Shown one piece after another: positions 2,704-31,649 of a DNA stretch of 32,000 nucleotides; positions within the stretch are counted from its first letter, which is position 1, and every line of letters begins with the position of its first letter. The notes beneath the pieces are model-generated. The model saw nothing but the letters and a program-made list of their open reading frames with translations. It did no database searches and was not told where the DNA came from. The stretch spans positions 1 through 32,000 of the forward strand of contig JACQIB010000001.1 in the NCBI GenBank assembly GCA_016198755.1. The letters are read 5' to 3'. Origin of the DNA: Candidatus Aenigmatarchaeota archaeon (GTDB lineage Archaea > Aenigmatarchaeota > Aenigmatarchaeia > Aenigmatarchaeales > JACQIB01). Made by a program: the position numbers and the translations under genes.

Positions 2704-3852
2704 TTAAATACCTTTTGACTCTGCGGCTTTCATTATCTCTCTAAGAACAACAGTTGCATAGCTGCCTGCTGGCAGCTCAAACTTTATTTTTACCTTTGAT
2801 TTATCTTTGTTCATCTCATCCTCCCCAATAACCCATTCAATCCTGGGTTTTATCAAAATAGCCCTCTCAAACCCTGTGCAGCGCAGCTCTGAAATACCCC
2901 TCGGGGCAAAACTCTCTGCTTTCAGCCCAAGTCCTTTCAACTGCTTTGCTATCTCCTCTTCCAGAGGGTTTGTTGTATCCAAATCAGTTCCATATCCAGG
3001 TAGCGAAGCTTTTCCTTCAATTAAAACCCCTTTTTTCCAGCACTTTTCCAGAGATCTGTTCCAAATAATGCTCTGCACAGCATTTATAAGCATTTTCAAA
3101 ACTCTGAAAGGCAGTCTTCTCAAACAGCCAACAAAATCCTTCGGGTGCTGTGCCAAATAATCTAGCATACTCCTTTCGTAAACAAACTCAGGCGGAAACA
3201 TTCCAAGAGCTTCCCTGTAAGCTTCCTGCTTTCCCCAGTTTTTCCAGACCCAGTCCCTTGCTTTTTTTGCCTCTTCCATTTCCCCATCGAAAACCTTTGC
3301 AATATACATTTTTGCAGCCTGCTCAAACTTCCCTTTAAGTATTGCGAGCCCAGCTTCAGCAGTTACAGCGCGCACTGTACCGAAACGTTGCTCCCCGAAA
3401 ACATTAGGTATACCCATATCCAGTTCTCTTGCAACAACTCTCAGTCTGCTTTCAATCTCCTTTTCTCTCAGCCCTATTTCCCTTATTGTAATCTCAAACT
3501 TGTTTCCTTTCAGGTTTCCAAGCCTTATCCTTCCCCCCTCTTCAATCCCCCATATCCTTATTCCAGGAACTTCTATTTTTTCAACCTGTTCTTTAGAAAT
3601 CCCAAAAACAGAAATTCTTTGTTTTGTTACAGCTCTTTTATCTTTTGTTCCGGCAACTCCAATCCTGCTTGCAGAACAATGGAGAGCTTTTGCTATAGCT
3701 CTCAGGGCTAGGTTATTATCCCAGTTTCTCTTCTCTATCCAGAACTGAATATTCCCCTCCCCCTGAACTTCCTTAGGTATTTCTTCCACTACAAAATCCT
3801 CTACCAGTTCCCTTATCCTCCCCCCAACCCCCTCCCCCATCGTAAAGAACAT
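2704..3852 (-). CDS. truD: tRNA pseudouridine synthase D (TruD/Pus7 family)
   Basis: GTKDKRAVTKQ catalytic-Asp motif, NVFGEQRFG motif, and 382 aa, which is typical of archaeal TruD. Confidence 0.85.
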   Translation of the reverse strand: MFFTMGEGVGGRIRELVEDFVVEEIPKEVQGEGNIQFWIEKRNWDNNLALRAIAKALHCSASRIGVAGTKDKRAVTKQRISVFGISKEQVEKIEVPGIRIWGIEEGGRIRLGNLKGNKFEITIREIGLREKEIESRLRVVARELDMGIPNVFGEQRFGTVRAVTAEAGLAILKGKFEQAAKMYIAKVFDGEMEEAKKARDWVWKNWGKQEAYREALGMFPPEFVYERSMLDYLAQHPKDFVGCLRRLPFRVLKMLINAVQSIIWNRSLEKCWKKGVLIEGKASLPGYGTDLDTTNPLEEEIAKQLKGLGLKAESFAPRGISELRCTGFERAILIKPRIEWVIGEDEMNKDKSKVKIKFELPAGSYATVVLREIMKAAESKGI

Positions 3853-3883: not shown

Positions 3884-6800
3884 TTAGTTTAGAACAGTGT
3901 TTCTTACTTTTTGAGAATCATTTACAAGATCGTTCCTTGCTTTGTCTACAAATTCCTTTATTTCATCTAGTTTTTTCTTGAAGTTATCATAATCTACTCT
4001 ATTTTTCCCACCCTTTAACAAGTTTGAAAACCCGCCCACCAACCCATCAGTTCTGCCTCTTAAAAACTCTTCCATATTTTCCAAGTTCCCCCCATATTTA
4101 CTCCACATATCAAGTATTTGCTGCTGCGCATCCAAACTGTCCCCAAGCTCGCTTTCCCTCTGCTTCAAATAACGTTTTACCTCCTCCGGTGCATCAGGTG
4201 CAGCAGCAAGTTTTCTTAGCTCATTTACAGTTCTCAGTGCCTCCCCTGCATCATTAGCTTTCACAATAAGCCTGTCAAAATCTTCCATTAGCGTTGGATG
4301 TTCTTCCATAAATTTCTGTACTCTAGTTCCATCAGAAAATACACTTATTCCCCATCCAAAGGTTTCAAAAGCTGCATACCACCCCATAGAAACTCCAAAT
4401 GCCTTTAAACCAGCCGGATTAATTTTCCCTCCAGGAAGCTTTATTTTTCCATACTTTTCTATCCGGTTTTTATATATTCTATGTACAGCAACATCCTTTC
4501 CTATATCCAATGATGTCTCTCTGGCAAAATCTCCGGCAGCTTCACCCAAATTTTTCCTACCACTGTTATAGTCTTCAAGAGCTTTATTATAGCTACCAAG
4601 TATGTCAACTCCAGGCAAGACGGCTTTGTTCAGAACCAGTTTTGCAATGGTTCCAATACTCAAATGTTCAGTCATTTTTTCTACTGTCCAATCAGCACCT
4701 TTCTTAACAATCTTCTTCCCAAGTTCGTTATCTACATTTTTATTGGTGCCCTCTTTGTATGGCATCTTTTGCCCAAAGAAGTCATTCGTCAAACCTTGCT
4801 CAACATCTCTACGATTTATCTTTAATACATCAGATATAATATGGTTTATCCAATTAGAGAGCAACCTGGTGGTATCCAACAAAATGTTGCCCGTTACAAA
4901 TGCTTTCTCGGGCCTCGGATCCACGTAATCCCTTTCCAGTGTTAGTGTCCCATCAGAAAACTCCCTTAGCTCAAGATTAACATCACCATAATTTCCTCTA
5001 TATATTTTTACTGTTCCATGATCAGGTAGCCCCCACATAGTAGGCTGGAAGTCAACGACCTTGAAAATATCCCTTCCTACAACAATTGGCTTGCTGTATG
5101 GCAGAGTTGGAATAAGGTTTGCCAATTTTTCTGTGTTTGCACTAGCAAGGCTTTGCATTGCAGTCTGGTCTGCAACATTGTAGAAGCTCTCTTCTCCAGC
5201 ATCGTTTTTTTGCAGTCTGTAAACATTTCCATTATAAACAATATTCTTCGATTCCCCCCGTTTCATTCCTCTAAATTCTTTGGAAAGAATATCTCCGAGA
5301 CCTCCGCTGAAAGTAGTAATTCCAGACTTAACAGTTGAGCCTATAACAGCATTTTTCATTTCCGTTTCTCTAATCATTTGCAGCTCTTTTTTAATCCTTT
5401 CTTCATTTTCCTGTGCAAATTTATTTGCATAGTTATCCCCGTACTTTTGTTTTATATTGAAGTAATATCCGCCAGGCAGCCACTCAGAAATATACCTTAC
5501 AGAGCTTACATTTCCAAACCCAGCTAGATACCTGCCTGCAACATTCCTCCTTATAGCATTGTTATCCGCACTTGGTGTTATTGAATCTTTTTCAGTTGGA
5601 AATATCTGCACAACTCTTTGTTTAAGTTCAGATAGCTTTGTTTCGAATCCTCTTATTGTCTGTTTTGTAAAAGCAACAGCCGTTCCAATTACGAGAAGGC
5701 CAATTAACGAAACAGCAAGCGCAGTTTCTGTATTATTATCATCATTTTCTCCCCGTCCACCATTTCCGGTTTCAATAGAGAATGGATATGATATATTTGA
5801 TGTATTATCTTCCGAAGATTTAATTAAAACAATAGGAACTTTTATTGTAGCGCGTAATGCATAATCCTTTCCAATAACTTCATTTCTAACTGAAACATCT
5901 CCACCAGCGCTTCCTGAAATAAATGTTTCTGATTGTTTTTCAGTATATCTCAATTCACCAATCTGATTAGAATCATGTACATCCATACAAACCCAGAACC
6001 TATTACCAACAGCAACAGGATATTTTAGTTTGAAAATTCTTTCATCCCCATTTGCTATTGTTGCATTTACAAAACTATCATAATAAAGCAGTGTTCCCAT
6101 CCTATATGCATTATCTGCATACACAAACAGGTTTGTCTGTCGCATAGTTTCCGGAGTAAAGCCAAGAGTACTAACTTCTGTTAATTCTGCTTTTTTTTCA
6201 TTTGTTTCGAATGCTTTACAAAGTTCAATATATCTGTTATCAGGTATAACTCTATTAAGTTTAGAACTGCTGTCAGAATTTTCTGTCTGAAGCTTGATAT
6301 TTTCATAAACAATGTCTTTATTCGGAATAACTTTAATTTCCGAACTATAGACTGCAACTCTTGCATCTATTGCAAAGCTGCCTTGCACATCATTATCAGT
6401 TTTTGTTTGTCCGCCTTCAGGATAGTAATACACACTACTAGAACCACCATTTCTATAGTATGCAAAATATGTTTCTTCTTTGGAGTCTGGTGCACTTAAG
6501 CAGACCCAGAAGTTTCCAGCCACAGGAACTGGAGTTTTAAAGTTAACAATTTCCCCATGTAGATCACCAGTTATAGAATAATTTGAATAGTCTGTACCAA
6601 TAACATTTCCAGGAACTCCACCATTATCAAGCCTAACTGTCCCTTTCAATATTTTGCTGTTAATATCTCCTCCATTAAAACCAGCAGCCCTTATCTGTGT
6701 AACAGCGGCATTTTTATCATTAATACCAACAATATTGCACAGTTCTACTCCGTTTTTAAGTGTACTGCTTGTTTTTTCATCAATATATCCCCAGAATTCC

Positions 6801-8575
6801 CTCAGATTCTTTTCCTTTATAATAGTCCCAGTGAAATTCAGGCTTTCATGAGGTACAGGAATACCCCCAAACCTTGCAAAAATAGCAGTATTGACAGGAT
6901 TTATATATTCATATAATAGTCTTGTTACAGGATTGAAAAAATAATCTGGAAGCCCATTTGAAACTCCTATATTTGTGTCGCGCGTGTAGTATGGTGTGTT
7001 CGTACATATCCAAATTCTATTGTCAGCTAAAATAGGTTCAGGTAAAATAAATGACTCATTATGGTATGATCCTATTTCAATGTCCTTGAAAAGTCTTGAT
7101 AAAAGAATTCCGGGCTTGTTTTTGTTATCATCATAAATCTTTATCTGCACGGTTCTTTTTGCACTTCTCCCGTCAAAACCAGAAACAATAACTTCTTTTA
7201 GTTCAGCTCCATTAAACGGCGGATTCAAAGGTTTGCATAATTCTTTTGGAGCTGTTGTAACATAACCGCCCGAAGCAGAATAACTGCTACTATTAGGCAA
7301 AATCACTTCAGTGTATCCAACAGGCTTATAATCAGCAACAGCAGCAGGATTTGTAATAACATCTGTCCTTATTGCATACTTTCTGGTATAGTGTGCACGG
7401 GTTAAACTCTCGTCTCTATGATTATAATAGTAAGCAAATTCTCCACTTTCGCTAAATGCGAGAAATCCCTGATTTGCATTCTCCACACCGTTGCCCAAGC
7501 AAGCCCAGAACTTCTCAGGCAAATCTACTCTATTCAGTATTATTGTTTCTTCATGAACACCATTTGTTGAAATATATTTTGTCCCTTTTGCAAGCAGAGT
7601 TCCAATTTTCCCAGAGTTATCAGAATAAACTGCGGCACTTATTTTAGATGTTCCTTGATTAAAACCAACACCAGTTACGCCATAAAGCTTGGAATTTGGA
7701 GCTGCGTTTGTAAAAAGTTTGCATACTTCCATGTCAGTAGTACTGGGAATTATGTTATCTGTCAGCATATTAGGAACAATTTCAACATTATCTGTTTTGA
7801 GTGATGTTCTATAACCATCCTTATTATTGTCAGCTGTAATAAAATCATATTCACAAAAATTATCAACCGGATTAAATGTTGGTTTTATACAGTTGTACCC
7901 GCCTCCGCAATCGCTGTCAACACCGCAGTTCAGAACCATGTAAGGTTTTGTTTTTCCGGTGTTTGTATCATTGTATTTTGGAGTAAAACTAGCCCAGCCA
8001 TGTGCAAACCATTGATGTCCACCTACATTTTGTAATGACATATCAAAATAACCAAAAATCGGGGGAGTTCTTATTTCAGCTTGAGGATTACTGTACGTTT
8101 TTTCCACAAAACTATTCTCTGTCTCAGATCTGCAAAACCCTTGTGAAAGCATTCTTGTATTTGTTGTGTTATCAACACAACCATAAGAAAATCCATTATT
8201 CCAGTTCTCATCAAATGCTATTATATCAAAACTAGAAACATGGAAAGATTGGCCAAGTATATTTGTAGCACCATTTACAGTTGCAGTAAACCATGTAGTA
8301 AAGTTTTCGCCAGTAAGCAGGTAAGCTTCTACAGTACCATCACCATCCACATCTGCGTAATGCCAGTCATTTGCACAACTAATTCCCAGCCCAGAAGAGA
8401 AAGGATCATAATCAGTTGGAGCCTGTTTTGTTCCCTCAGAAGGAGTCCAATACATGGAATTATGCGATTCCCCATTGTTATAGAAATCAATGCATATTGG
8501 CTTTACTGCTGCAGCTGGTAGAGCTAGAAAAAGGGAAGTCAATATTAAACCCAGCAAAATATGGCGTGCGTACAT
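3884..8575 (-). CDS. 1563-aa type-I membrane surface protein: signal peptide, about 925-aa ectodomain with four tandem repeats, one TM helix, about 590-aa cytoplasmic domain
   Basis: Uninterrupted 4.7-kb ORF. The N-terminal signal is HILLGLILTSLFLALPAAA. The TM segment ALAVSLIGLLVIGTAVAF (aa 952-969, nt 5669-5722) is followed by TKQTIRGFETK. I recognise no known catalytic motif. Confidence 0.8.
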   Translation of the reverse strand: MYARHILLGLILTSLFLALPAAAVKPICIDFYNNGESHNSMYWTPSEGTKQAPTDYDPFSSGLGISCANDWHYADVDGDGTVEAYLLTGENFTTWFTATVNGATNILGQSFHVSSFDIIAFDENWNNGFSYGCVDNTTNTRMLSQGFCRSETENSFVEKTYSNPQAEIRTPPIFGYFDMSLQNVGGHQWFAHGWASFTPKYNDTNTGKTKPYMVLNCGVDSDCGGGYNCIKPTFNPVDNFCEYDFITADNNKDGYRTSLKTDNVEIVPNMLTDNIIPSTTDMEVCKLFTNAAPNSKLYGVTGVGFNQGTSKISAAVYSDNSGKIGTLLAKGTKYISTNGVHEETIILNRVDLPEKFWACLGNGVENANQGFLAFSESGEFAYYYNHRDESLTRAHYTRKYAIRTDVITNPAAVADYKPVGYTEVILPNSSSYSASGGYVTTAPKELCKPLNPPFNGAELKEVIVSGFDGRSAKRTVQIKIYDDNKNKPGILLSRLFKDIEIGSYHNESFILPEPILADNRIWICTNTPYYTRDTNIGVSNGLPDYFFNPVTRLLYEYINPVNTAIFARFGGIPVPHESLNFTGTIIKEKNLREFWGYIDEKTSSTLKNGVELCNIVGINDKNAAVTQIRAAGFNGGDINSKILKGTVRLDNGGVPGNVIGTDYSNYSITGDLHGEIVNFKTPVPVAGNFWVCLSAPDSKEETYFAYYRNGGSSSVYYYPEGGQTKTDNDVQGSFAIDARVAVYSSEIKVIPNKDIVYENIKLQTENSDSSSKLNRVIPDNRYIELCKAFETNEKKAELTEVSTLGFTPETMRQTNLFVYADNAYRMGTLLYYDSFVNATIANGDERIFKLKYPVAVGNRFWVCMDVHDSNQIGELRYTEKQSETFISGSAGGDVSVRNEVIGKDYALRATIKVPIVLIKSSEDNTSNISYPFSIETGNGGRGENDDNNTETALAVSLIGLLVIGTAVAFTKQTIRGFETKLSELKQRVVQIFPTEKDSITPSADNNAIRRNVAGRYLAGFGNVSSVRYISEWLPGGYYFNIKQKYGDNYANKFAQENEERIKKELQMIRETEMKNAVIGSTVKSGITTFSGGLGDILSKEFRGMKRGESKNIVYNGNVYRLQKNDAGEESFYNVADQTAMQSLASANTEKLANLIPTLPYSKPIVVGRDIFKVVDFQPTMWGLPDHGTVKIYRGNYGDVNLELREFSDGTLTLERDYVDPRPEKAFVTGNILLDTTRLLSNWINHIISDVLKINRRDVEQGLTNDFFGQKMPYKEGTNKNVDNELGKKIVKKGADWTVEKMTEHLSIGTIAKLVLNKAVLPGVDILGSYNKALEDYNSGRKNLGEAAGDFARETSLDIGKDVAVHRIYKNRIEKYGKIKLPGGKINPAGLKAFGVSMGWYAAFETFGWGISVFSDGTRVQKFMEEHPTLMEDFDRLIVKANDAGEALRTVNELRKLAAAPDAPEEVKRYLKQRESELGDSLDAQQQILDMWSKYGGNLENMEEFLRGRTDGLVGGFSNLLKGGKNRVDYDNFKKKLDEIKEFVDKARNDLVNDSQKVRNTVLN
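5831..7729 (-). repeat. Four tandem, divergent protein-domain repeats of about 130-165 aa inside the giant ORF
   Basis: Each unit starts E-[LV]-C-[KN] and has [FI]-W-[AIV]-C 74-79 residues later (Cys pairs 285/359, 447/524, 613/692, 786/863). Tyr-rich and [YF]A[IL]R/FAR/FAID motifs then recur. Units are approximately nt 7346-7729, 6851-7243, 6341-6745 and 5831-6226. Confidence 0.75.
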
Positions 8576-12186: not shown

Positions 12187-12222
12187 TCATTGGTTAAAAA
12201 GGCATTGGTGCCCCCGCTGGGA

Positions 12223-12325
12223 TTTTCACCCTACCTGAGGGGGTAGGGCTGCATTCAACATTGTTTATGTTGTATGCACCGAAACTTTTGAAGTTTCGGT
12301 TGTAGGGGGAAACATCCCCCTGAGC
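12223..12325 (-). other. tRNA intron 2 (103 nt, T-loop, between about positions 56 and 60; placement ambiguous by 3 nt)
   Basis: Removing it restores TTCAAAT between a perfect CTGGG/CCCAG T-stem. The insert carries four local hairpins: GGGGGAtgttTCCCCC, CCGAAACTTcaaAAGTTTCGG, GCATACAACAT..ATGTTGAATGC and CCCTACC..GGTAGGG. Confidence 0.65.
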
Positions 12326-12370
12326 TTTGAACCCAGGTCCTAAGGTCCGCAACCTCATGTCCTATCCATT

Positions 12371-12399
12371 CTAGCACACGAAGCTTGCTTCGCGCGAAG
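12371..12399 (-). other. tRNA intron 1 (29 nt, D-loop, around position 15/16; placement ambiguous by 4 nt because CTAG flanks both ends)
   Basis: Removing it restores a 10-nt D-loop containing GG. The insert contains GCTTCG/CGAAGC/GCTTCG, which are alternative pairing elements. Confidence 0.65.
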
Positions 12400-12423
12400 C
12401 TAGACTACAGGGGCTACAGAAGA

Positions 12424-12448
12424 TTTAAATACCTTTAGCTTTTAAATA
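12424..12448. promoter_or_regulatory. Divergent promoter region with two TTTAAATA octamers
   Basis: The octamer at 12441-12448 lies 27-34 nt upstream of the tRNA 5' end (12414, minus strand). The octamers at 12424 and 12441 lie 45 and 28 nt upstream of the ATG at 12476 (plus strand). Confidence 0.45.
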
Positions 12449-12475
12449 GAGCAGAAGTATGGAAGTTGTGAGAAA

Positions 12476-12637
12476 ATGGTATTGAAGTGCAGCACATGTG
12501 GGATTAATCTGGTTGGACAGGAAGAGTTTACAAAGTTTTTATGTCCATCCTGCGGGCAAAAAGAGTTTGTACGTTGCAGGCAGTGCAAAGTCCATTCCAC
12601 CAAGTATAAGTGCGAGTGCGGTTTTGAGGGGCCATAA
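12476..12637 (+). CDS. 53-aa Zn-ribbon protein (small archaeal Zn-ribbon gene conserved upstream of aEF-1beta)
   Basis: Below the ORF-track cutoff. Sequence MVLKCSTCGINLVGQEEFTKFLCPSCGQKEFVRCRQCKVHSTKYKCECGFEGP has CxxC, CPxCG, CxxC and CxC motifs. Its TAA abuts the ATG of ef1b. As I recall, this synteny is conserved in archaea. Confidence 0.7.
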   Translation: MVLKCSTCGINLVGQEEFTKFLCPSCGQKEFVRCRQCKVHSTKYKCECGFEGP

Positions 12638-14739: not shown

Positions 14740-16455
14740 ATGGCAGAACTGGCAACAGAGTTTATACCAAAAACAACATTGGAAATGAAAGAGGGAGAAA
14801 CCCTATACTATAAGTCAGCTTCTCTCTGTCCGGAGTGCTTAAAATTAATACCAATGAATGTTTTTGAGAAAGATGGAAAAGTTTTGCTCAGGAAAGCCTG
14901 CAAGGAACATGGAACAATAGAAGATGTTTATTGGGGGAATTCAGAGCTGTTCAAGAAGGCTAAAACATTCGAAGTTAAAGGGAGGGGATTGGAAAATCCA
15001 TTCATAACAAAGGACAATCCTATATGTCCTCAGGATTGTGGTCTTTGTTCAATACACGAGACTCACTCAGGCTTAACAAATTTGGTTATAACAAACCGCT
15101 GTGACTTAACCTGCTGGTACTGTTTCTTTTATGCTGAGAAAGCTGGCTATATTTATGAACCAACTTTAGATCAAATACGCGGAATGGTCGCACAGATAAA
15201 GGATGAAAAGCCAATTGCAGGAAATGCAATCCAGATTACAGGAGGAAACCCTGAACTAAGAGATGATTTGCCTGAAATAATAAAAATAATAAAGGAAGTC
15301 GGAATAGATCATGTTCAATTGAATACAAATGGCACAAACAAACTTTTCAAAGACCTGAACTTTGCAAAATCCATACGCGCCGCAGGAGTAAACACGGTTT
15401 ACCTGAGCTATGATGGTGTAACTCCGCAAACAAACCCAAAGAACCATTGGGAAGCACCTGCAATTTTAGATAACTGCAGGAAATCAAACCTTGGGGTTGT
15501 TCTTGTCCCAACTGTCATAAGGACAATAAACGACCATGAGATAGGAGATATACTGAAATTCGGATTTGATAATAATGATATTATAAAAGGAGTTAATTAC
15601 CAGCCAGTTTCTTTGGTTGGAAGAATGCCCACAAAAGAAAGGGAACGATTCAGAATAACAATACCAGATGTAATTGAAAAGCTTGAGGAAGCTACTAACG
15701 GTCAGGTTGGAAGGGAAGCTTTCTATCCAGTTCCATGTACAGTTATACTTTCAAACTTTGTAGAGGCTTTAACAGGCGGACCCAAATATGAGCTTTCAAT
15801 TAATCCAGCCTGCGGAATGGCAACCTATATTTTCAAGGATGGGGAAAAGCTTATACCAATAACAGACTTTGTGGATGTGGACGGTTTGTATGGATATCTA
15901 CGAGAGCAAACAGAAGCTCTGCAGAGCGGCGCAAACAAGTATGTTGTTATTGCGAAAATGATGACTAAACTCCCTTCATTCATAGACAATGATCGCCAGC
16001 CAAAGTGGCTTAACCTAGGAAAAGTCCTGTTCAATATTTTAGTAAAACATAACTATGAGGCTCTGGGTGCTTTCCACAAGAATGCTTTGTTCGTTGGAAT
16101 GATGCACTTCCAGGACCTATATAATTGGGATATACAGAGGATAAAGAAGTGCGACATCCATTACGCTACACCTGAAGGAGTTATCCCATTTTGTACATTC
16201 AATGTTATACCAGAATGGTACAGGGACAAGATACAGAAGAAACATTCTATCTCTTTACAGGAGTGGGAACAGAGGACAGGTCAGAGTTTGAAGGGAGGAT
16301 ACTACAAGAGGAACATTAAAGCTCTTATGGCAGATCCGCTCTATGCTAAAACTTATCCAAAAATTGCAGCCAAGCTTGCTGCACGCGCTGCTGCTCTTCC
16401 AGTTGCCCAGCCAGCCCAGTCTTCTTGCGCCACAGGCCCAGGCTGCGGTTGCTGA
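14740..16455 (+). CDS. Radical-SAM enzyme of the MJ0619/Tes (tetraether lipid synthase) architecture
   Basis: N-terminal rubredoxin-like CPEC...CKEHG, then CPQDCGLC, the radical-SAM triad NRCDLTCWYCF, GGNPELR, and a C-terminal KCDIHYATPEGVIPFCTFN. Radical-SAM assignment about 0.9; Tes-specific assignment about 0.5, from recalled family features. Confidence 0.7.
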   Translation: MAELATEFIPKTTLEMKEGETLYYKSASLCPECLKLIPMNVFEKDGKVLLRKACKEHGTIEDVYWGNSELFKKAKTFEVKGRGLENPFITKDNPICPQDCGLCSIHETHSGLTNLVITNRCDLTCWYCFFYAEKAGYIYEPTLDQIRGMVAQIKDEKPIAGNAIQITGGNPELRDDLPEIIKIIKEVGIDHVQLNTNGTNKLFKDLNFAKSIRAAGVNTVYLSYDGVTPQTNPKNHWEAPAILDNCRKSNLGVVLVPTVIRTINDHEIGDILKFGFDNNDIIKGVNYQPVSLVGRMPTKERERFRITIPDVIEKLEEATNGQVGREAFYPVPCTVILSNFVEALTGGPKYELSINPACGMATYIFKDGEKLIPITDFVDVDGLYGYLREQTEALQSGANKYVVIAKMMTKLPSFIDNDRQPKWLNLGKVLFNILVKHNYEALGAFHKNALFVGMMHFQDLYNWDIQRIKKCDIHYATPEGVIPFCTFNVIPEWYRDKIQKKHSISLQEWEQRTGQSLKGGYYKRNIKALMADPLYAKTYPKIAAKLAARAAALPVAQPAQSSCATGPGCGC

Positions 16456-27310: not shown

Positions 27311-29077
27311 CCTTCGGCTCACAGTAAAATACCTGTAGAAATGGTGGCTTTGTATGTTGAACCAATAAAGTGGCATTGGAAAACTTAACTTAGGCTTAAA
27401 AAAGCCTCTTTTTCTCGTGGTTCCCCTCAGGAGCTTTGTGCTATAACTGTGGTCCACGGTGTTTTTCCTTGTTGCAGAAATGCAGCATGCTATCATAGTC
27501 CTTAACAGGACTGGCACATACCGTACGTGCCAACAGCCCTCAATGAATTCAAGTAACGCGGCTGAGCCGAAAGGCAATGACATGCCCATGGGGTATATAA
27601 GAGGGTGCAAAAAAACCGGGCAGTGAAGAAACAAAACTGTCTCTTTGAGCAAAAAGCGATGAAAAAAACAAATGACGTTTCGAGCCCGTAAGCAGATGCT
27701 CATTCGAACCTGGGAGTTCGGGTGTAAGGGCAAATAGGAAGCGATGAAAGGTTTAGAACACCTATTGAGCTTTCAAGATCTTTATGATCGATGATGCCAA
27801 CAGAGGAAAGAGGAAAGGGTCTGGAACATCACAATAAAGGATACTGTATGGTGGATGACTCGGCATGGGTTACCGATGAAGAGCGTAGCAAGCTGCGATA
27901 AGCCTGGGTGAGACGCAAGCAGTCTTAGAACCCGGGATTCTCCAATGCGACCTCGCGCCAGTTTAGGCTGGCATTCGCATACAGAAATGTTTGCGAAAGG
28001 GAACCCGCTGAATTAAAGCATTTTAATAAGCGGAGGAAGAAAAATCAAACGAGATGCCGCTATTAGCAGCGAGCGAAAACGGCAGAGACCAACCCGAATC
28101 TTTTTGTGTAAGCAGGAAGAGATGTGGGGCCAGGTACAATCTTTCTTTCGACCTGAAGTTCCGTGGAACACGGGTGCCATAGAAGGTGAAAGTCCTGTAA
28201 GGGAAAAAAGAAAGATTGATTCTGGAGGAAGAGTACCATTCCCCGATTCGGGAGTGGGAATATGGGGGTCATCAATCTCCAAGTCTAAACATAAACCATG
28301 GCCGATAGCGAAAGAAGTACGGTGACGGAATGTTGAAAAGAATTCTTCACCGAAGATGAAAAGAACCTGAAACCATACAGTGATAGTCGCCCATGGCGCG
28401 AAAGGTGCCCTTGTGAAGGAAAACTGCGTGAGCAGTGTGTACGAACAGGGGCTTACAGCGTTATGGGGTTCGTTTCGAAACACGTGGTAGGGAGTTTGCT
28501 TTCCTGGCGAGCTTAAGCTGTAAAACGGCGAAAGCGTAGCGAAAGCGATTGCACGCAGCCCGCAAGGGTCAGGTGCAAGGTTCGAAAGAGCCTGTAGTCA
28601 GGGGGGCAAGACCCGAAACCTTTCGATCTTACCCTGGGCAGGATGAAGTGCGGCGAAAGCTGCATGGAGGTCCGATACCGATGCTAGCGCTAACTTCTCC
28701 AGCAGGAGAAGCTTCCAAGAAAAATCTGATTGGAGGAGGTGCAACCTGCTCGGGTGACCTGGGGTAAGGGGTGAAAAGCCAATCGAGAAAGGTAATAGCT
28801 GGTTCCTCTCGAAATGTCCCTCAGGACAGCCTCGCTGGAGGCAGCTTGTGGGGTAAAGCACTGATTGGGGTGTTAAGGTGGGAAACCGCCGGCACGCCTG
28901 TCAGACTCATAACCTGCAAGCACCGTAGAAGGCGGGAGTGAGGGTACCTGGGTAAGCTAGGTATCCGAAGCGGGAACAACCGCGCCTGAGGTTAAGGTCC
29001 CTAAATGATAACTAAGTCACAAAAGTGGTGTCAGTCCAAAGACAGACGGGGCGTAGGCTTAGAAGCAGCCAATTTGA

Positions 29078-29934
29078 GTAGTAATCTATACTTTAGAATA
29101 CGAAAATCAATAAAAGGAAGATTGATTAATAGAATAAAGTGCACAAACTACCGCCAAAAAATCCGAAAATCGCGTTGAAGACTGTTAACCTGCAAGGGTT
29201 AACAGCTTTTAGAAAAACTAAGCCTACGATACCCAATTACATAAATCCGCAACTAGCATATCTGGCGGGAGCACTAAGAGATGGTACAATTTCAAAAACT
29301 ACAGGGCCGTATGGCACAAAATACTATCTAGCAATATGCAATAAAGACAAGATATGGCTTGATAGTGTAATACGGCCTACCATAGAAACAATATTCAACA
29401 TAAAACTTGGGAAAATACTGAAAGACAGACAAAAACACCAAATCAGAATAAGAAAATATGGGATAGTGCAATTCTTGGCAGATTTGTTCCAACATCCATA
29501 TGGTAAACAAACCTTATGGAAAACCCCAAAGATCATAGAGGATTCGCATAAAGAAATAAAAAAATGGTTCTTGCGAGGATTCTATGATTCTGAAGGAGGT
29601 TGTGGGAACATAACAAAATTGTATAATAAATATCCGTGGCACAGTCCATTTCCTATCAGATTCCATTCTGGATGGATAAATGAAAAAGAATGTCCTCCAC
29701 TGGATTCTATTAGGTATATATTGACTGAAGATTTTGGTATAAAATGTTCGCCTGTTATCTTTTCTAAGAGATATAAAACAGGCAGATACAAAACTCAAGT
29801 AAAAATGTTTTATATAAAAATTACAGATAAAGAACAAAAATTGAAATTCATTAAAACCATAGGTAGCTCAAATCCAACCAAATTTAAAGAACTATTATTT
29901 TTGAAAGGATTGCTGCTCAAAGCTGAACCGCATA
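29078..29934 (+). mobile_element. 23S intron I1 (about 857 nt) carrying a LAGLIDADG homing-endonuclease ORF, inserted at E. coli position about 1085/1086 (GTPase-associated centre, between the A1067 and A1095 loops)
   Basis: The exon sequence GCAGCCAATTTGA (29065-29077) stops aligning at 29077. Alignment resumes near ATCAACGCGTAACAGCGGACC (29935-). The insert is AT-rich. TTTGAG (29073-29078) can pair with CTCAAA (29917-29922). Boundaries are +/-5 nt. Confidence 0.8.
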
Positions 29935-30068
29935 ATCAACGCGTAACAGCGGACCGTTCGAGGACTGATGCGCTGAAAATGGACGGGAGTAAGTTATCTA
30001 CCGAGACCTCAGATACCAAAAGGTATAGCGTAGAGAGGCGCTCTGTTCGGGTAGAAGTTGGGGCGTAA
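29139..30068 (+). CDS. Double-motif LAGLIDADG homing endonuclease (intron-encoded)
   Basis: Motif 1 is LAYLAGALRDG (aa 39-49) and motif 2 is FLRGFYDSEGG (aa 144-154), spaced about 105 aa apart. The start is GTG. The endonuclease core ends near aa 265. The last 45 or so codons (29935-30068) are read-through into rRNA exon sequence and are probably not part of the real protein. Confidence 0.85.
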   Translation: MHKLPPKNPKIALKTVNLQGLTAFRKTKPTIPNYINPQLAYLAGALRDGTISKTTGPYGTKYYLAICNKDKIWLDSVIRPTIETIFNIKLGKILKDRQKHQIRIRKYGIVQFLADLFQHPYGKQTLWKTPKIIEDSHKEIKKWFLRGFYDSEGGCGNITKLYNKYPWHSPFPIRFHSGWINEKECPPLDSIRYILTEDFGIKCSPVIFSKRYKTGRYKTQVKMFYIKITDKEQKLKFIKTIGSSNPTKFKELLFLKGLLLKAEPHNQRVTADRSRTDALKMDGSKLSTETSDTKRYSVERRSVRVEVGA

Positions 30069-30734
30069 GTTCCAATGGACCGTTCAGAGATGAGAATCCT
30101 ACCGATAGTAGCAGCAAAGAAGAGTTGGAATCTCTTCCGCCCGAAAGGCAAGGTTTTCCCGGCAACGATACTCGGCCGGGAGTAAGCCGATCCTAAGTCG
30201 CCCCCTAACGGACGGCGACGAAAGGGAATACGGTTAATATTCCGTAGCTGCAGCCATAGACGGGGTAACCCAAGCCCAGGCAAAATGTTTTTGGATATGT
30301 TCATGTAAGCGAAGCGTTTAAACCCTTGGAGTTCCGTCAAGGAGAGAAAAGGGTGAATGCGTTACAGGCTTCGGCGCAAGCTGGAGTTGAGCAAATTCCA
30401 AGAATCCATGAAAATTTGCCAGGGAGCGATTGGCTGCATTCGTACTCAGAACCGACGCAGGTGACCTTGTCTGAGAAGGACGTGGCGTGACGAGATACAC
30501 CAGGCTAGGGAACTCGGCAACACTGGCCGCGTACGTTCGCTATAAGCGGTGCCCATCTAGAGATAGGTGGGTCTCAGTGACCAGGGCCAAGCGACTGTTT
30601 AACAAAAACGTAGCCGGTTGCTATGCGGAAACGCTGTGTATAACCGGTGAGGCCTGCCCAGTGGCGGTGTGTCAAACTCGGTTTCAACCGAGCTAAGCCC
30701 CGCTAAACGGCGGCGGTAACTCTGACCGTCTTAA

Positions 30735-30775
30735 TCCAATCATGTAGAGAAATCTGTATGGTTGCATTGGGTACA
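30735..30775 (+). other. 23S insertion I2 (41 nt) directly 3' of helix 69 (E. coli about 1928/1929); putative mini-intron
   Basis: ACCGTCTTAA | TCCAATCATGTAGAGAAATCTGTATGGTTGCATTGGGTACA | GGTAGCG. The insert folds as CCAAT/ATTGG plus CATGTAGA-GAAA-TCTGTATG (GNRA loop). Confidence 0.6.
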
Positions 30776-30910
30776 GGTAGCGTAATCCCTTGCCGATTAA
30801 ATGTCGGCCTGCATCAATGGCTTAACGACTTGGCCGCTGTCCCGGTCTGGAACTCGGCGAACTTGCTATTGTGGTGAAAAGGCCACAGACCCTCAGAGGG
30901 AATCGGAAGA

Positions 30911-31171
30911 AGTGCTCTCGAAAATTTTAAAAAATAAAAATAGGTGATAAAAATGAGAGAAATCAAAAATTTAATAGAGACAAAGTCTTGCGATCCTATA
31001 ACAGCATTAAATGTTGCAACACAAATAGTGTCAGCAGGAGCAGCAGTTGCATCTGTATACTATGCATCTAAAAAGAAATAAAATAAATACCTACCAACAT
31101 AAGCGAGAAGGTATTATGATCATGAATAGTTAGAATAGAATTTGAGCATTTCTCCGACCTCATAGAGAAGA
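30911..31171 (+). other. 23S insertion I3 (261 nt, AT-rich) within GGAAGA|CCCC (E. coli about 2058-2063); putative intron with a micro-ORF
   Basis: Removing it gives ATCGGAAGACCCCGTGGAGC, which matches the archaeal-type G2058 sequence. GAAGA is repeated at both junctions, so there are six equivalent placements. AGTGCTC (30911-17) pairs with GAGCATT (31144-50), and TCGGA (30903-07) pairs with TCCGA (31153-57). Confidence 0.65.
30953..31081 (+). CDS. Intron-encoded 42-aa hydrophobic micro-ORF (MREIKNLIETKSCDPITALNVATQIVSAGAAVASVYYASKKK)
   Basis: ATG is preceded by AGGTGAT (30942-30948), a 7-nt match to the anti-SD of archaeal 16S. The C-terminal half is a roughly 23-residue hydrophobic segment ending in KKK. 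I recognise no homing-endonuclease motif. Coding status is unproven. Confidence 0.35.
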   Translation: MREIKNLIETKSCDPITALNVATQIVSAGAAVASVYYASKKK

Positions 31172-31591
31172 CCCCGTGGAGCTCTGCGGCAGCCTGTCGT
31201 TGCTGTGCGGTCGCGGTTTCATAGAGTAGTTGGGAGAGGTTATATCAGCGTTTTCGGGCGCTGGTTACTCGGCAATGTAACACCAACATCTCGTGACTGT
31301 ACTGCTAACCTCGACTCGGGGGACACCGATTGGTGGGCCGCTCGGCTGGGGCGGTACGCTCATGACAGGAGATCATGAGCGCGCAAAGTTATCCTCATCC
31401 CGGTCAGAAATCGGGAGTAGAGTGTAAACGCAAAAGGATGACTGACTGTGTTCCGCAAAGCAAGGAACGCAGACGCGAAAGCGTGCGTTAGCGATACACC
31501 GAGTGGTCTTTGATGGATTTCGGTGACTTCAGAAAAGCTACCCCGGGGATATGGGTTGGCGCAGAGAAGCGGGTTTTCTTGGAACAATTTA

Positions 31592-31649
31592 ATAAGGCAA
31601 AGCTATCTTGCCAATAGAAATATTGGTTTGCAAAGCAAGCTTTATGCTA
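31592..31649 (+). repeat. Copy 1 of a roughly 57-nt direct repeat inside intron I4
   Basis: ATAAGGCAAAGCTATCTTGCCAATAGAAATATTGGTTTGCAAAGCAAGCTTTATGCTA. It contains the hairpins GGCAA..TTGCC and CCAATA-GAAA-TATTGG. Confidence 0.85.

Follow-up and report, generated by a model that had tools for sequence, protein, structure and literature searches.

Non-canonical introns and multiple introns within one tRNA gene, including introns at position 59/60 in DPANN archaea, have been published previously, and the type of gene described here is known. The non-canonical insertion sites, with 59/60 among them, the occurrence of several introns per tRNA, and the hBH and HBh′ motifs have been reviewed (PMC4090602). 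Introns at 59/60, HBh′ motifs, and multi-intron tRNAs are also on record from other archaea, with cleavage shown in vitro (PMC3239211, PMC4090602, PMC5829648). Among the closest described systems is that of the DPANN archaeon ARMAN-2, where 59/60 introns, for example those of pre-tRNA-Cys(GCA) and pre-tRNA-Pro(GGG), and a two-intron tRNA are cleaved in vitro by a broad-range endonuclease (PMC3239211). Disruption of tRNA genes is increased in several DPANN lineages, and undetected disrupted tRNAs are expected there; an L3-type loop of EndA is also described for DPANN (PMC5829648). As quoted in PMC4090602 from Sugahara et al. (2007/2008), tRNA-Pro(UGG) of Pyrobaculum islandicum carries introns at 25/26, 37/38, and 56/57. 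For the Thermoproteales, the model cited in the same review (Fujishima 2010) has families of introns transposing from one tRNA gene to another. In a natural population of Caldiarchaeum subterraneum, the number of introns at the tRNA-Thr(GGU) locus varies, and this variation was read as recent gain (PMC3293823).

A tRNA-Arg(GCG) gene with one intron in the D-loop and one in the T-loop is described here from a 32,000-nt stretch of DNA of a Candidatus Aenigmatarchaeota archaeon (the window). As in ARMAN-2 (Candidatus Micrarchaeum), the host belongs to the DPANN and the T-loop intron lies at 59/60 with its BHB on the T-stem. Unlike the ARMAN-2 introns, which are 13 nt long, the T-loop intron is 103 nt long with four hairpins, the phylum is a different one, and the partner is a D-loop intron instead of a second T-loop intron. 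With the multi-intron tRNAs of the Thermoproteales the gene shares several BHB or HBh′ introns per tRNA gene, sites in the D-arm and T-arm, and escape from the standard finders; it differs in its DPANN lineage and in the lack of a canonical intron in the window copy. An earlier note on this DNA had placed D-loop, T-loop, and multi-intron tRNAs mainly in the Thermoproteales, which is contradicted by the reported DPANN cases, including ARMAN-2 with its 59/60 introns (PMC3239211; PMC5829648). As at the Caldiarchaeum tRNA-Thr(GGU) locus, close relatives carry different numbers of introns at one orthologous tRNA locus. The Caldiarchaeum case includes a scattered tRNA fragment and, nearby, an insertion that bears a recombinase; at the window locus, neither a mobile element nor a tRNA fragment was found. 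Site 17/17a, occupied by the D-loop intron, is not among the sites listed in PMC4090602 (20/21, 22/23, 25/26, 29/30, 30/31, 45/46, 53/54, 56/57, and 59/60, followed there by "etc."), and a literature search specifically for tRNA introns of Aenigmarchaeota found no report in the searched collection.

Computational Procedures

Window positions were obtained by subtracting the precursor position from 12415. BHB motifs were scanned for as a 4-bp central helix (H) followed by a 3-nt bulge on each strand, with the cut placed after the second bulge nucleotide. The geometry is as described in PMC4090602, according to which the central helix of the canonical intron includes the first two anticodon bases as paired positions. 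As a positive control, the same scan recovered the canonical 37/38 introns of two orthologues (L009 and L012). In the shuffle control the exons were held fixed and only the introns were shuffled in 200,000 trials. Orthologous loci (labeled L001 and onward) were taken from the DNA upstream of decarboxylase homologues or found by scanning collections of genomes and metagenomes for the exon core GGATAGGACATGAGGTTGCGG.

The tRNA-Arg(GCG) Gene and Its Predicted Spliced Product

The features of the locus are listed in Table 1. The earlier note had proposed that removal of 29 and 103 nt from the gene yields a 77-nt cloverleaf with an encoded CCA, and ARAGORN called this spliced sequence tRNA-Arg(gcg), with either the D-loop junction of that note or the one derived here from the BHB motif. 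The remaining structural features that it had listed were also found: an acceptor stem of 7 bp with a single U6·G67 pair, a perfect 5-bp T-stem (CTGGG/CCCAG), the anticodon loop TTGCGGA, G15 and C48, and no intron at 37/38 in the window copy. The conserved nucleotides U8, A14, G18 G19, and U54 U55 C56 (T54 T55 C56 in the DNA) are present, and the anticodon loop has 7 nt. The predicted mature product is a 74-nt tRNA plus CCA with the D-loop AGCUUGGAUA and the T-loop UUCAAAU. The predicted tRNA decodes the CGC and CGU codons.

Table 1. Coordinates of the tRNA-Arg(GCG) gene, its flanking signals, and the 23S rRNA intron in the window.
Feature	Window position	Strand	Precursor nt	Remarks
tRNA-Arg(GCG) gene	12206..12414	(-)	1-209	209 nt; G1 at 12414, last A of the encoded CCA at 12206
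Exon 1	12398..12414	(-)	1-17	gap-free against L012, L014, and L017; BHB scan
D-loop intron	12369..12397	(-)	18-46	29 nt; between tRNA positions 17 and 17a; HBh′-type BHB
Exon 2	12326..12368	(-)	47-89	anticodon GCG at 12350..12348
T-loop intron	12223..12325	(-)	90-192	103 nt; tRNA position 59/60; BHB on the T-stem
Exon 3	12206..12222	(-)	193-209	
Likely TATA box, TATTTAAAAG	12439..12448	(-)		25-34 nt upstream of G1; putative promoter, read from the sequence
Run of five T	12196..12200	(-)		starts 6 nt past CCA; putative transcription stop
23S rRNA intron	29072..29927	(+)		856 nt; HBh′-type BHB; inside the 23S gene at 27827..31630

The acceptor 5′ strand GCCCCUG, U8 A9, the D-stem 5′ strand GUCU, and A14 G15 C16 U17 are contributed by exon 1. 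The remainder of the D-arm, the anticodon arm, a 4-nt variable region, the T-stem 5′ strand, and T54 to A59 are supplied by exon 2. Exon 3 holds U60, the T-stem 3′ strand, the acceptor 3′ strand, A73, and CCA. The TATA-like box upstream of the gene is conserved in L005 and L009, with a similar box upstream of L011, L012, and L017, and the T-run downstream of CCA is likewise conserved in L005 and L009.

The locus is very probably a functional tRNA-Arg(GCG) gene whose two introns are cut by EndA at their BHBs and whose three exons are ligated. The course that we infer for transcription, cleavage, and ligation is as follows. A precursor of about 209 nt would be transcribed from the upstream TATA box and end at the T-run. 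Both introns would then be cut out at the BHB motifs by the archaeal RNA-splicing endonuclease EndA, to which the T-loop intron would offer a 3-4-3 BHB with the T-stem as the outer helix and the D-loop intron a relaxed HBh′ motif with a palindromic CUAG/CUAG helix and nearly no outer helix. The three exons would be joined by an RNA ligase, which is RtcB in known archaea. The relaxed form of the D-loop motif implies an endonuclease of broad substrate range. No EndA or RtcB genes were found within the 32-kb window, and the recorded contigs end within it.

BHB Motifs of the Two Introns

In the BHB scan of the 209-nt precursor, the D-loop and T-loop motifs were the best candidates that leave the tRNA intact. 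Two 3-nt bulges on opposite strands flank a 4-bp helix at both introns. A 4-bp central helix together with an inner helix of at least 3 bp at the required register was obtained in 8e-4 of the shuffles for the D-loop intron and in 5e-4 for the T-loop intron. The fold with both BHBs enforced has an energy of -92.6 kcal/mol versus -98.8 kcal/mol for the minimum, about 6 kcal/mol higher.

The outer helix of the T-loop BHB is the 5-bp T-stem (12336..12332 with 12221..12217). The central helix pairs UUCA (12331..12328; precursor 84-87) with UGAA (12228..12225; precursor 187-190), with AA|G and AA|U as the bulges. The inner helix has 3 bp, one of them G·U, and competes with the last hairpin of the intron; when both BHBs are enforced, that hairpin stacks directly on the central helix. 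Canonical 37/38 introns have this same 3-4-3 geometry on the anticodon stem. The four hairpins that the earlier note had described in the 103-nt intron are seen in the minimum-energy fold of the precursor (z = -8.4). An AAA repeat does flank the insertion as reported there, but the junction ambiguity that had been ascribed to it is resolved by the two bulges, and the predicted location of the intron is fixed at 59/60. The L009 orthologue, which has no T-loop intron, reads TTCAAAT, the exact product predicted for splicing at 59/60, and the same T-loop is found in L014. In L005 the T-loop intron retains the same central helix and bulges, with an inner helix of only 1 bp. A role of the T-loop introns as C/D-box small RNA was considered and rejected; neither the window intron nor that of L005 has a UGAUGA box, and the window intron also has no CUGA.

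The central helix of the D-loop motif is formed by CUAG (12403..12400; precursor 12-15) with CUAG (12374..12371; precursor 41-44); the bulges read CU|U and AA|U, and a hairpin stem of 9 bp (12396..12388 with 12383..12375; precursor 19-27 with 32-40) serves as the inner helix. Since the outer helix has only 1 bp, the motif is assigned to the relaxed HBh′ type. For C12 and U13, pairing in the central helix is in competition with pairing in the D-stem. The same central helix and bulges are kept in the D-loop introns of L005 (20 nt) and L009 (50 nt). The length of 29 nt given in the earlier note holds for this intron, but the BHB and the orthologues locate it 2 nt downstream of the placement given there (precursor 16-44). 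The CTAG direct repeat of that note is present; its two copies are the strands of the central helix, which has 4 bp and is palindromic, and do not reflect an ambiguity of the junction.

A 27-nt register of the D-loop intron (precursor 19-45), shifted by 1 nt, also scores well in the BHB scan, and the minimum-energy fold adopts it. This register is disfavored only because the resulting D-loop would have 13 nt, which is seen in no orthologue.

Orthologous Genes and Their Intron Architectures

Most of the tRNA-Arg copies retrieved are known to adjoin the same gene for phosphatidylserine decarboxylase, the exceptions being L011 and L014. The gene sequence of the window, with its 29-nt D-loop intron, 103-nt 59/60 intron, and empty 37/38 site, is found unchanged in the independent assemblies L001-L004, and samples of the SRR121134xx series also carry it. 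In L005, L006, and L008, where the decarboxylase is 82% identical and the exons are identical, the D-loop intron is 20 nt and the 59/60 intron 53 nt, again with nothing at 37/38. L009 (GCA_053536735.1; decarboxylase 76% identical) combines a 50-nt D-loop intron with a 21-nt intron at 37/38 and has none at 59/60. A 43-nt intron at 37/38 is the only one in L012 (Aenigmatarchaeota JZ-2_2_bin_245). All three sites are empty in L017, L019, and L020, which adjoin the decarboxylase gene, in L014, a short metagenome contig, and in L011, from an uncultured archaeon with different downstream sequence. The D-loop reads AGCTTGGATA in L012, L014, and L017/L019/L020, and AGCCTGGATA in L011.

After splicing at the BHBs, the six distinct mature sequences align without gaps, and excision recreates the sequence of the intron-free homologues. 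The cloverleaf is fully paired across the six orthologues (126/126 pair cells), and three pairs are changed on both sides. The exons of the window and of the L005 lineage are identical at 77/77 positions; those of L009 show one difference, from U6·G67 to C6-G67. The exons are thus near-invariant, while the introns and the neighboring protein (76-82% identical) diverge, which argues for a working gene and not a pseudogene.

Two further observations were made on the retrieved loci. Relative to L011 and L017, the conserved promoter block of L012 is separated from the tRNA-Arg 5′ end by about 30 additional nt (3120..3152), with GGCC at both ends and a GACGGC/GCCGUC hairpin inside. This segment was tried as an intron of the 3/4 type, for which the BHB scan found no motif; possible readings of it are a structured 5′ leader and an unusual insertion in the acceptor stem. 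In L016 (OBEQ010026294.1, 2750..2960), a tRNA-Arg(GCG) of another type was found, with an acceptor and D-arm unlike those of the archaeal copies. Its T-arm/acceptor 3′ part TTCCACGCGAGGGCA is repeated after an insertion of about 70 nt, which could be an intron or an integration scar.

Alternative Explanations

The D-loop intron might instead be excised at the junction proposed in the earlier note (precursor 16-44, or an equivalent within the CTAG repeat), which would give the D-loop AGAAUGGAUA. That product is likewise accepted by ARAGORN as tRNA-Arg(gcg) and leaves G18 G19 and A14 G15 intact. By hand modeling and by the BHB scan, however, none of the five CTAG-repeat junctions (0/5) yields a 4-bp helix with both cuts inside flanking 3-nt bulges, and the resulting D-loop is found in no orthologue. 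Among the copies without a D-loop intron, three D-loops read AGCTTGGATA, one reads AGCCTGGATA, and none reads AGAATGGATA; the lack of any orthologue with the last of these supports the BHB-derived junction. Splicing at the BHB gives AGCUUGGAUA in place of AGAAUGGAUA, identical to the D-loops of L012, L014, and L017, and excision at the other junction is regarded as quite improbable.

It is very improbable that the locus is a decaying pseudogene, inactivated by the two insertions, with another tRNA-Arg(GCG) elsewhere in the genome doing the work. Such a reading would fit the fact that the unspliced gene is called by no standard finder, but the exons match those of the L005 lineage and differ once from those of L009 while the introns vary in length and sequence, and the neighboring protein is conserved far less than these exons. 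The BHB helices and bulges are preserved in all intron-bearing copies, and the promoter box and T-run are conserved. In the scans of the genome and metagenome collections with the exon core, each matching contig had a single copy, and no second one turned up near these lineages. [quoted passage not shown] In favor of this explanation, tRNA genes often serve as integration targets, intron gain has been modeled as the work of mobile elements (PMC3293823), and the T-loop intron starts with GCUCAG, which can mimic the T-stem 3′ strand. Against it stand the identical sequence in at least four independent assemblies and the precise BHB motifs of both insertions. Neither intron has another copy in the window or in the fetched loci; a blastn search of these with a 7-nt word returned only the gene itself as a match to the introns. 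An origin of the T-loop intron start by duplication and decay of the tRNA 3′ end was rejected, since the local alignment score was matched by 91% of shuffles. A viral origin was also tried with one segment, the 21-nt hairpin of the T-loop intron, and an exact scan of viral contigs gave 0 matches.

Detection by Standard Tools

The expectation of the earlier note that standard finders miss the unspliced gene was confirmed, since ARAGORN and the Rfam tRNA model were both silent. On the unspliced window ARAGORN reported no tRNA anywhere, and the Rfam tRNA model RF00005 gave no match to the unspliced gene even at E<=10. Across the orthologues, all intron-free copies were called by ARAGORN and all intron-bearing copies were missed. 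At the gathering threshold, the sole Rfam match in the whole window was the archaeal 23S rRNA. No further tRNA was found by the Rfam scan of positions 1-27800 at E<=1. A T-arm/acceptor pattern scan of the whole window likewise revealed no hidden tRNA, although a tRNA with a split T-loop would evade this pattern.

A false T-arm, CUGGG-UUCAAAG-CUCAG, can form at 12320..12336 on the minus strand, where the start of the T-loop intron, GCUCAG, is able to pair with the T-stem 5′ strand. This false arm was chosen by ARAGORN when the D-loop intron alone was removed.

Neighboring Genes and the 23S rRNA Intron

The neighboring genes are archaeal and include those for phosphatidylserine decarboxylase, two CDP-alcohol phosphatidyltransferases, CDP-archaeol synthase, a small zinc-finger protein, and aEF-1beta. 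The decarboxylase is 100% identical to an NCBI protein from a Candidatus Aenigmarchaeota MAG (DPANN). A radical-SAM/HMPTM-type gene at 14740..16455 encodes 571 aa in the window, while the orthologue in L009 (1..54 and upstream) has 1033 aa and matches Intein_splicing and LAGLIDADG_3. The L009 lineage therefore has an intein that is absent from that of the window. No Pfam match at E<=0.001 was obtained for a 1563-aa ORF at 3884..8575 (-), which other assemblies of the same organism (L026) also have as a called gene.

The nearby 23S gene had been described as intron-laden, but a single insertion, the 856-nt intron of Table 1, accounts for its excess length. This intron has an inner helix of 15 bp, a central helix of CAGC (29066-29069) with GCUG (29922-29925), and CA|A and AA|C as bulges. 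Removal of the intron restores the conserved sequence GGCUUAGAAGCAGCCA|CC. The GGCUUAGAAGCAGCCA site is presumably the L11-binding/thiostrepton region near E. coli position 1076. An ORF of 309 aa at 29139..30068 has a sub-threshold LAGLIDADG match (E = 0.006). With its HBh′-style motif and this ORF, the intron resembles the archaeal rRNA BHB introns that carry LAGLIDADG-type ORFs; it differs from the tRNA introns in residing in a different gene and in being far larger and protein-coding, while the tRNA introns are non-coding. The HBh′ motif in both the 23S and the tRNA introns indicates that this genome uses relaxed BHBs in rRNA and tRNA alike, on both of which one splicing system would act.

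Possible Intron Turnover among Relatives

The D-loop intron is homologous in three lineages and differs mainly by indels within its hairpin, with the bulges and central helix unchanged. The 59/60 introns of the window and of L005 (103 versus 53 nt) show 26 aligned matches, versus 21 ± 3.8 in shuffles, and so resemble each other no more than shuffled sequences do, although the flanking sequences are identical at 66/66 upstream and 53/56 downstream bases. Judged from these alignments, the two 59/60 introns could reflect independent insertion, replacement, or very fast change. The third lineage (L009) has an intron at 37/38 and none at 59/60.

A wider reading of these differences is that the BHB introns of this Aenigmarchaeota sub-clade turn over actively, being replaced or re-inserted at fixed sites instead of drifting slowly. 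This is offered as a speculation and is rated unlikely. The earlier note had suggested a lineage-wide expansion of BHB-type introns. Such an expansion is seen for only one tRNA gene in one sub-clade; the deeper relatives have one intron or none. Similar introns in different tRNA genes or sites, by which intron transposition is recognized, were not found, in a weak test that covered one tRNA gene.

The 66-nt intergenic region at 12415..12480, which separates the tRNA gene from the divergent zinc-finger/aEF-1beta genes and holds two TATA-like boxes, is 100% identical between the window and L005, against about 82% identity of the flanking proteins. Judged from these two loci, its non-coding conservation appears unusually strong.

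Implications

The current understanding of archaeal tRNA splicing is unchanged by this locus. The HBh′ motifs in the tRNA and 23S introns predict a broad-range endonuclease in this lineage. ARAGORN and the Rfam tRNA model are blind to genes of this kind, and DPANN genomes may therefore appear to lack tRNA-Arg(GCG) while having such genes. Undetected intron-bearing tRNAs affect estimates of genome completeness and claims of missing tRNAs.

The main value of the locus lies in close relatives that carry different sets of introns in the same gene. Five architectures occur in one orthologous gene: no intron, the canonical intron only, the D-loop plus the canonical intron, and the D-loop plus the T-loop intron with two unrelated T-loop introns. 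These constitute compact data on the gain, loss, and replacement of protein-spliced introns outside the Thermoproteales. If replacement of an intron at a BHB site is real, the locus would be a natural snapshot of such a process, and possible routes would then be reverse splicing and recombination with excised intron circles.
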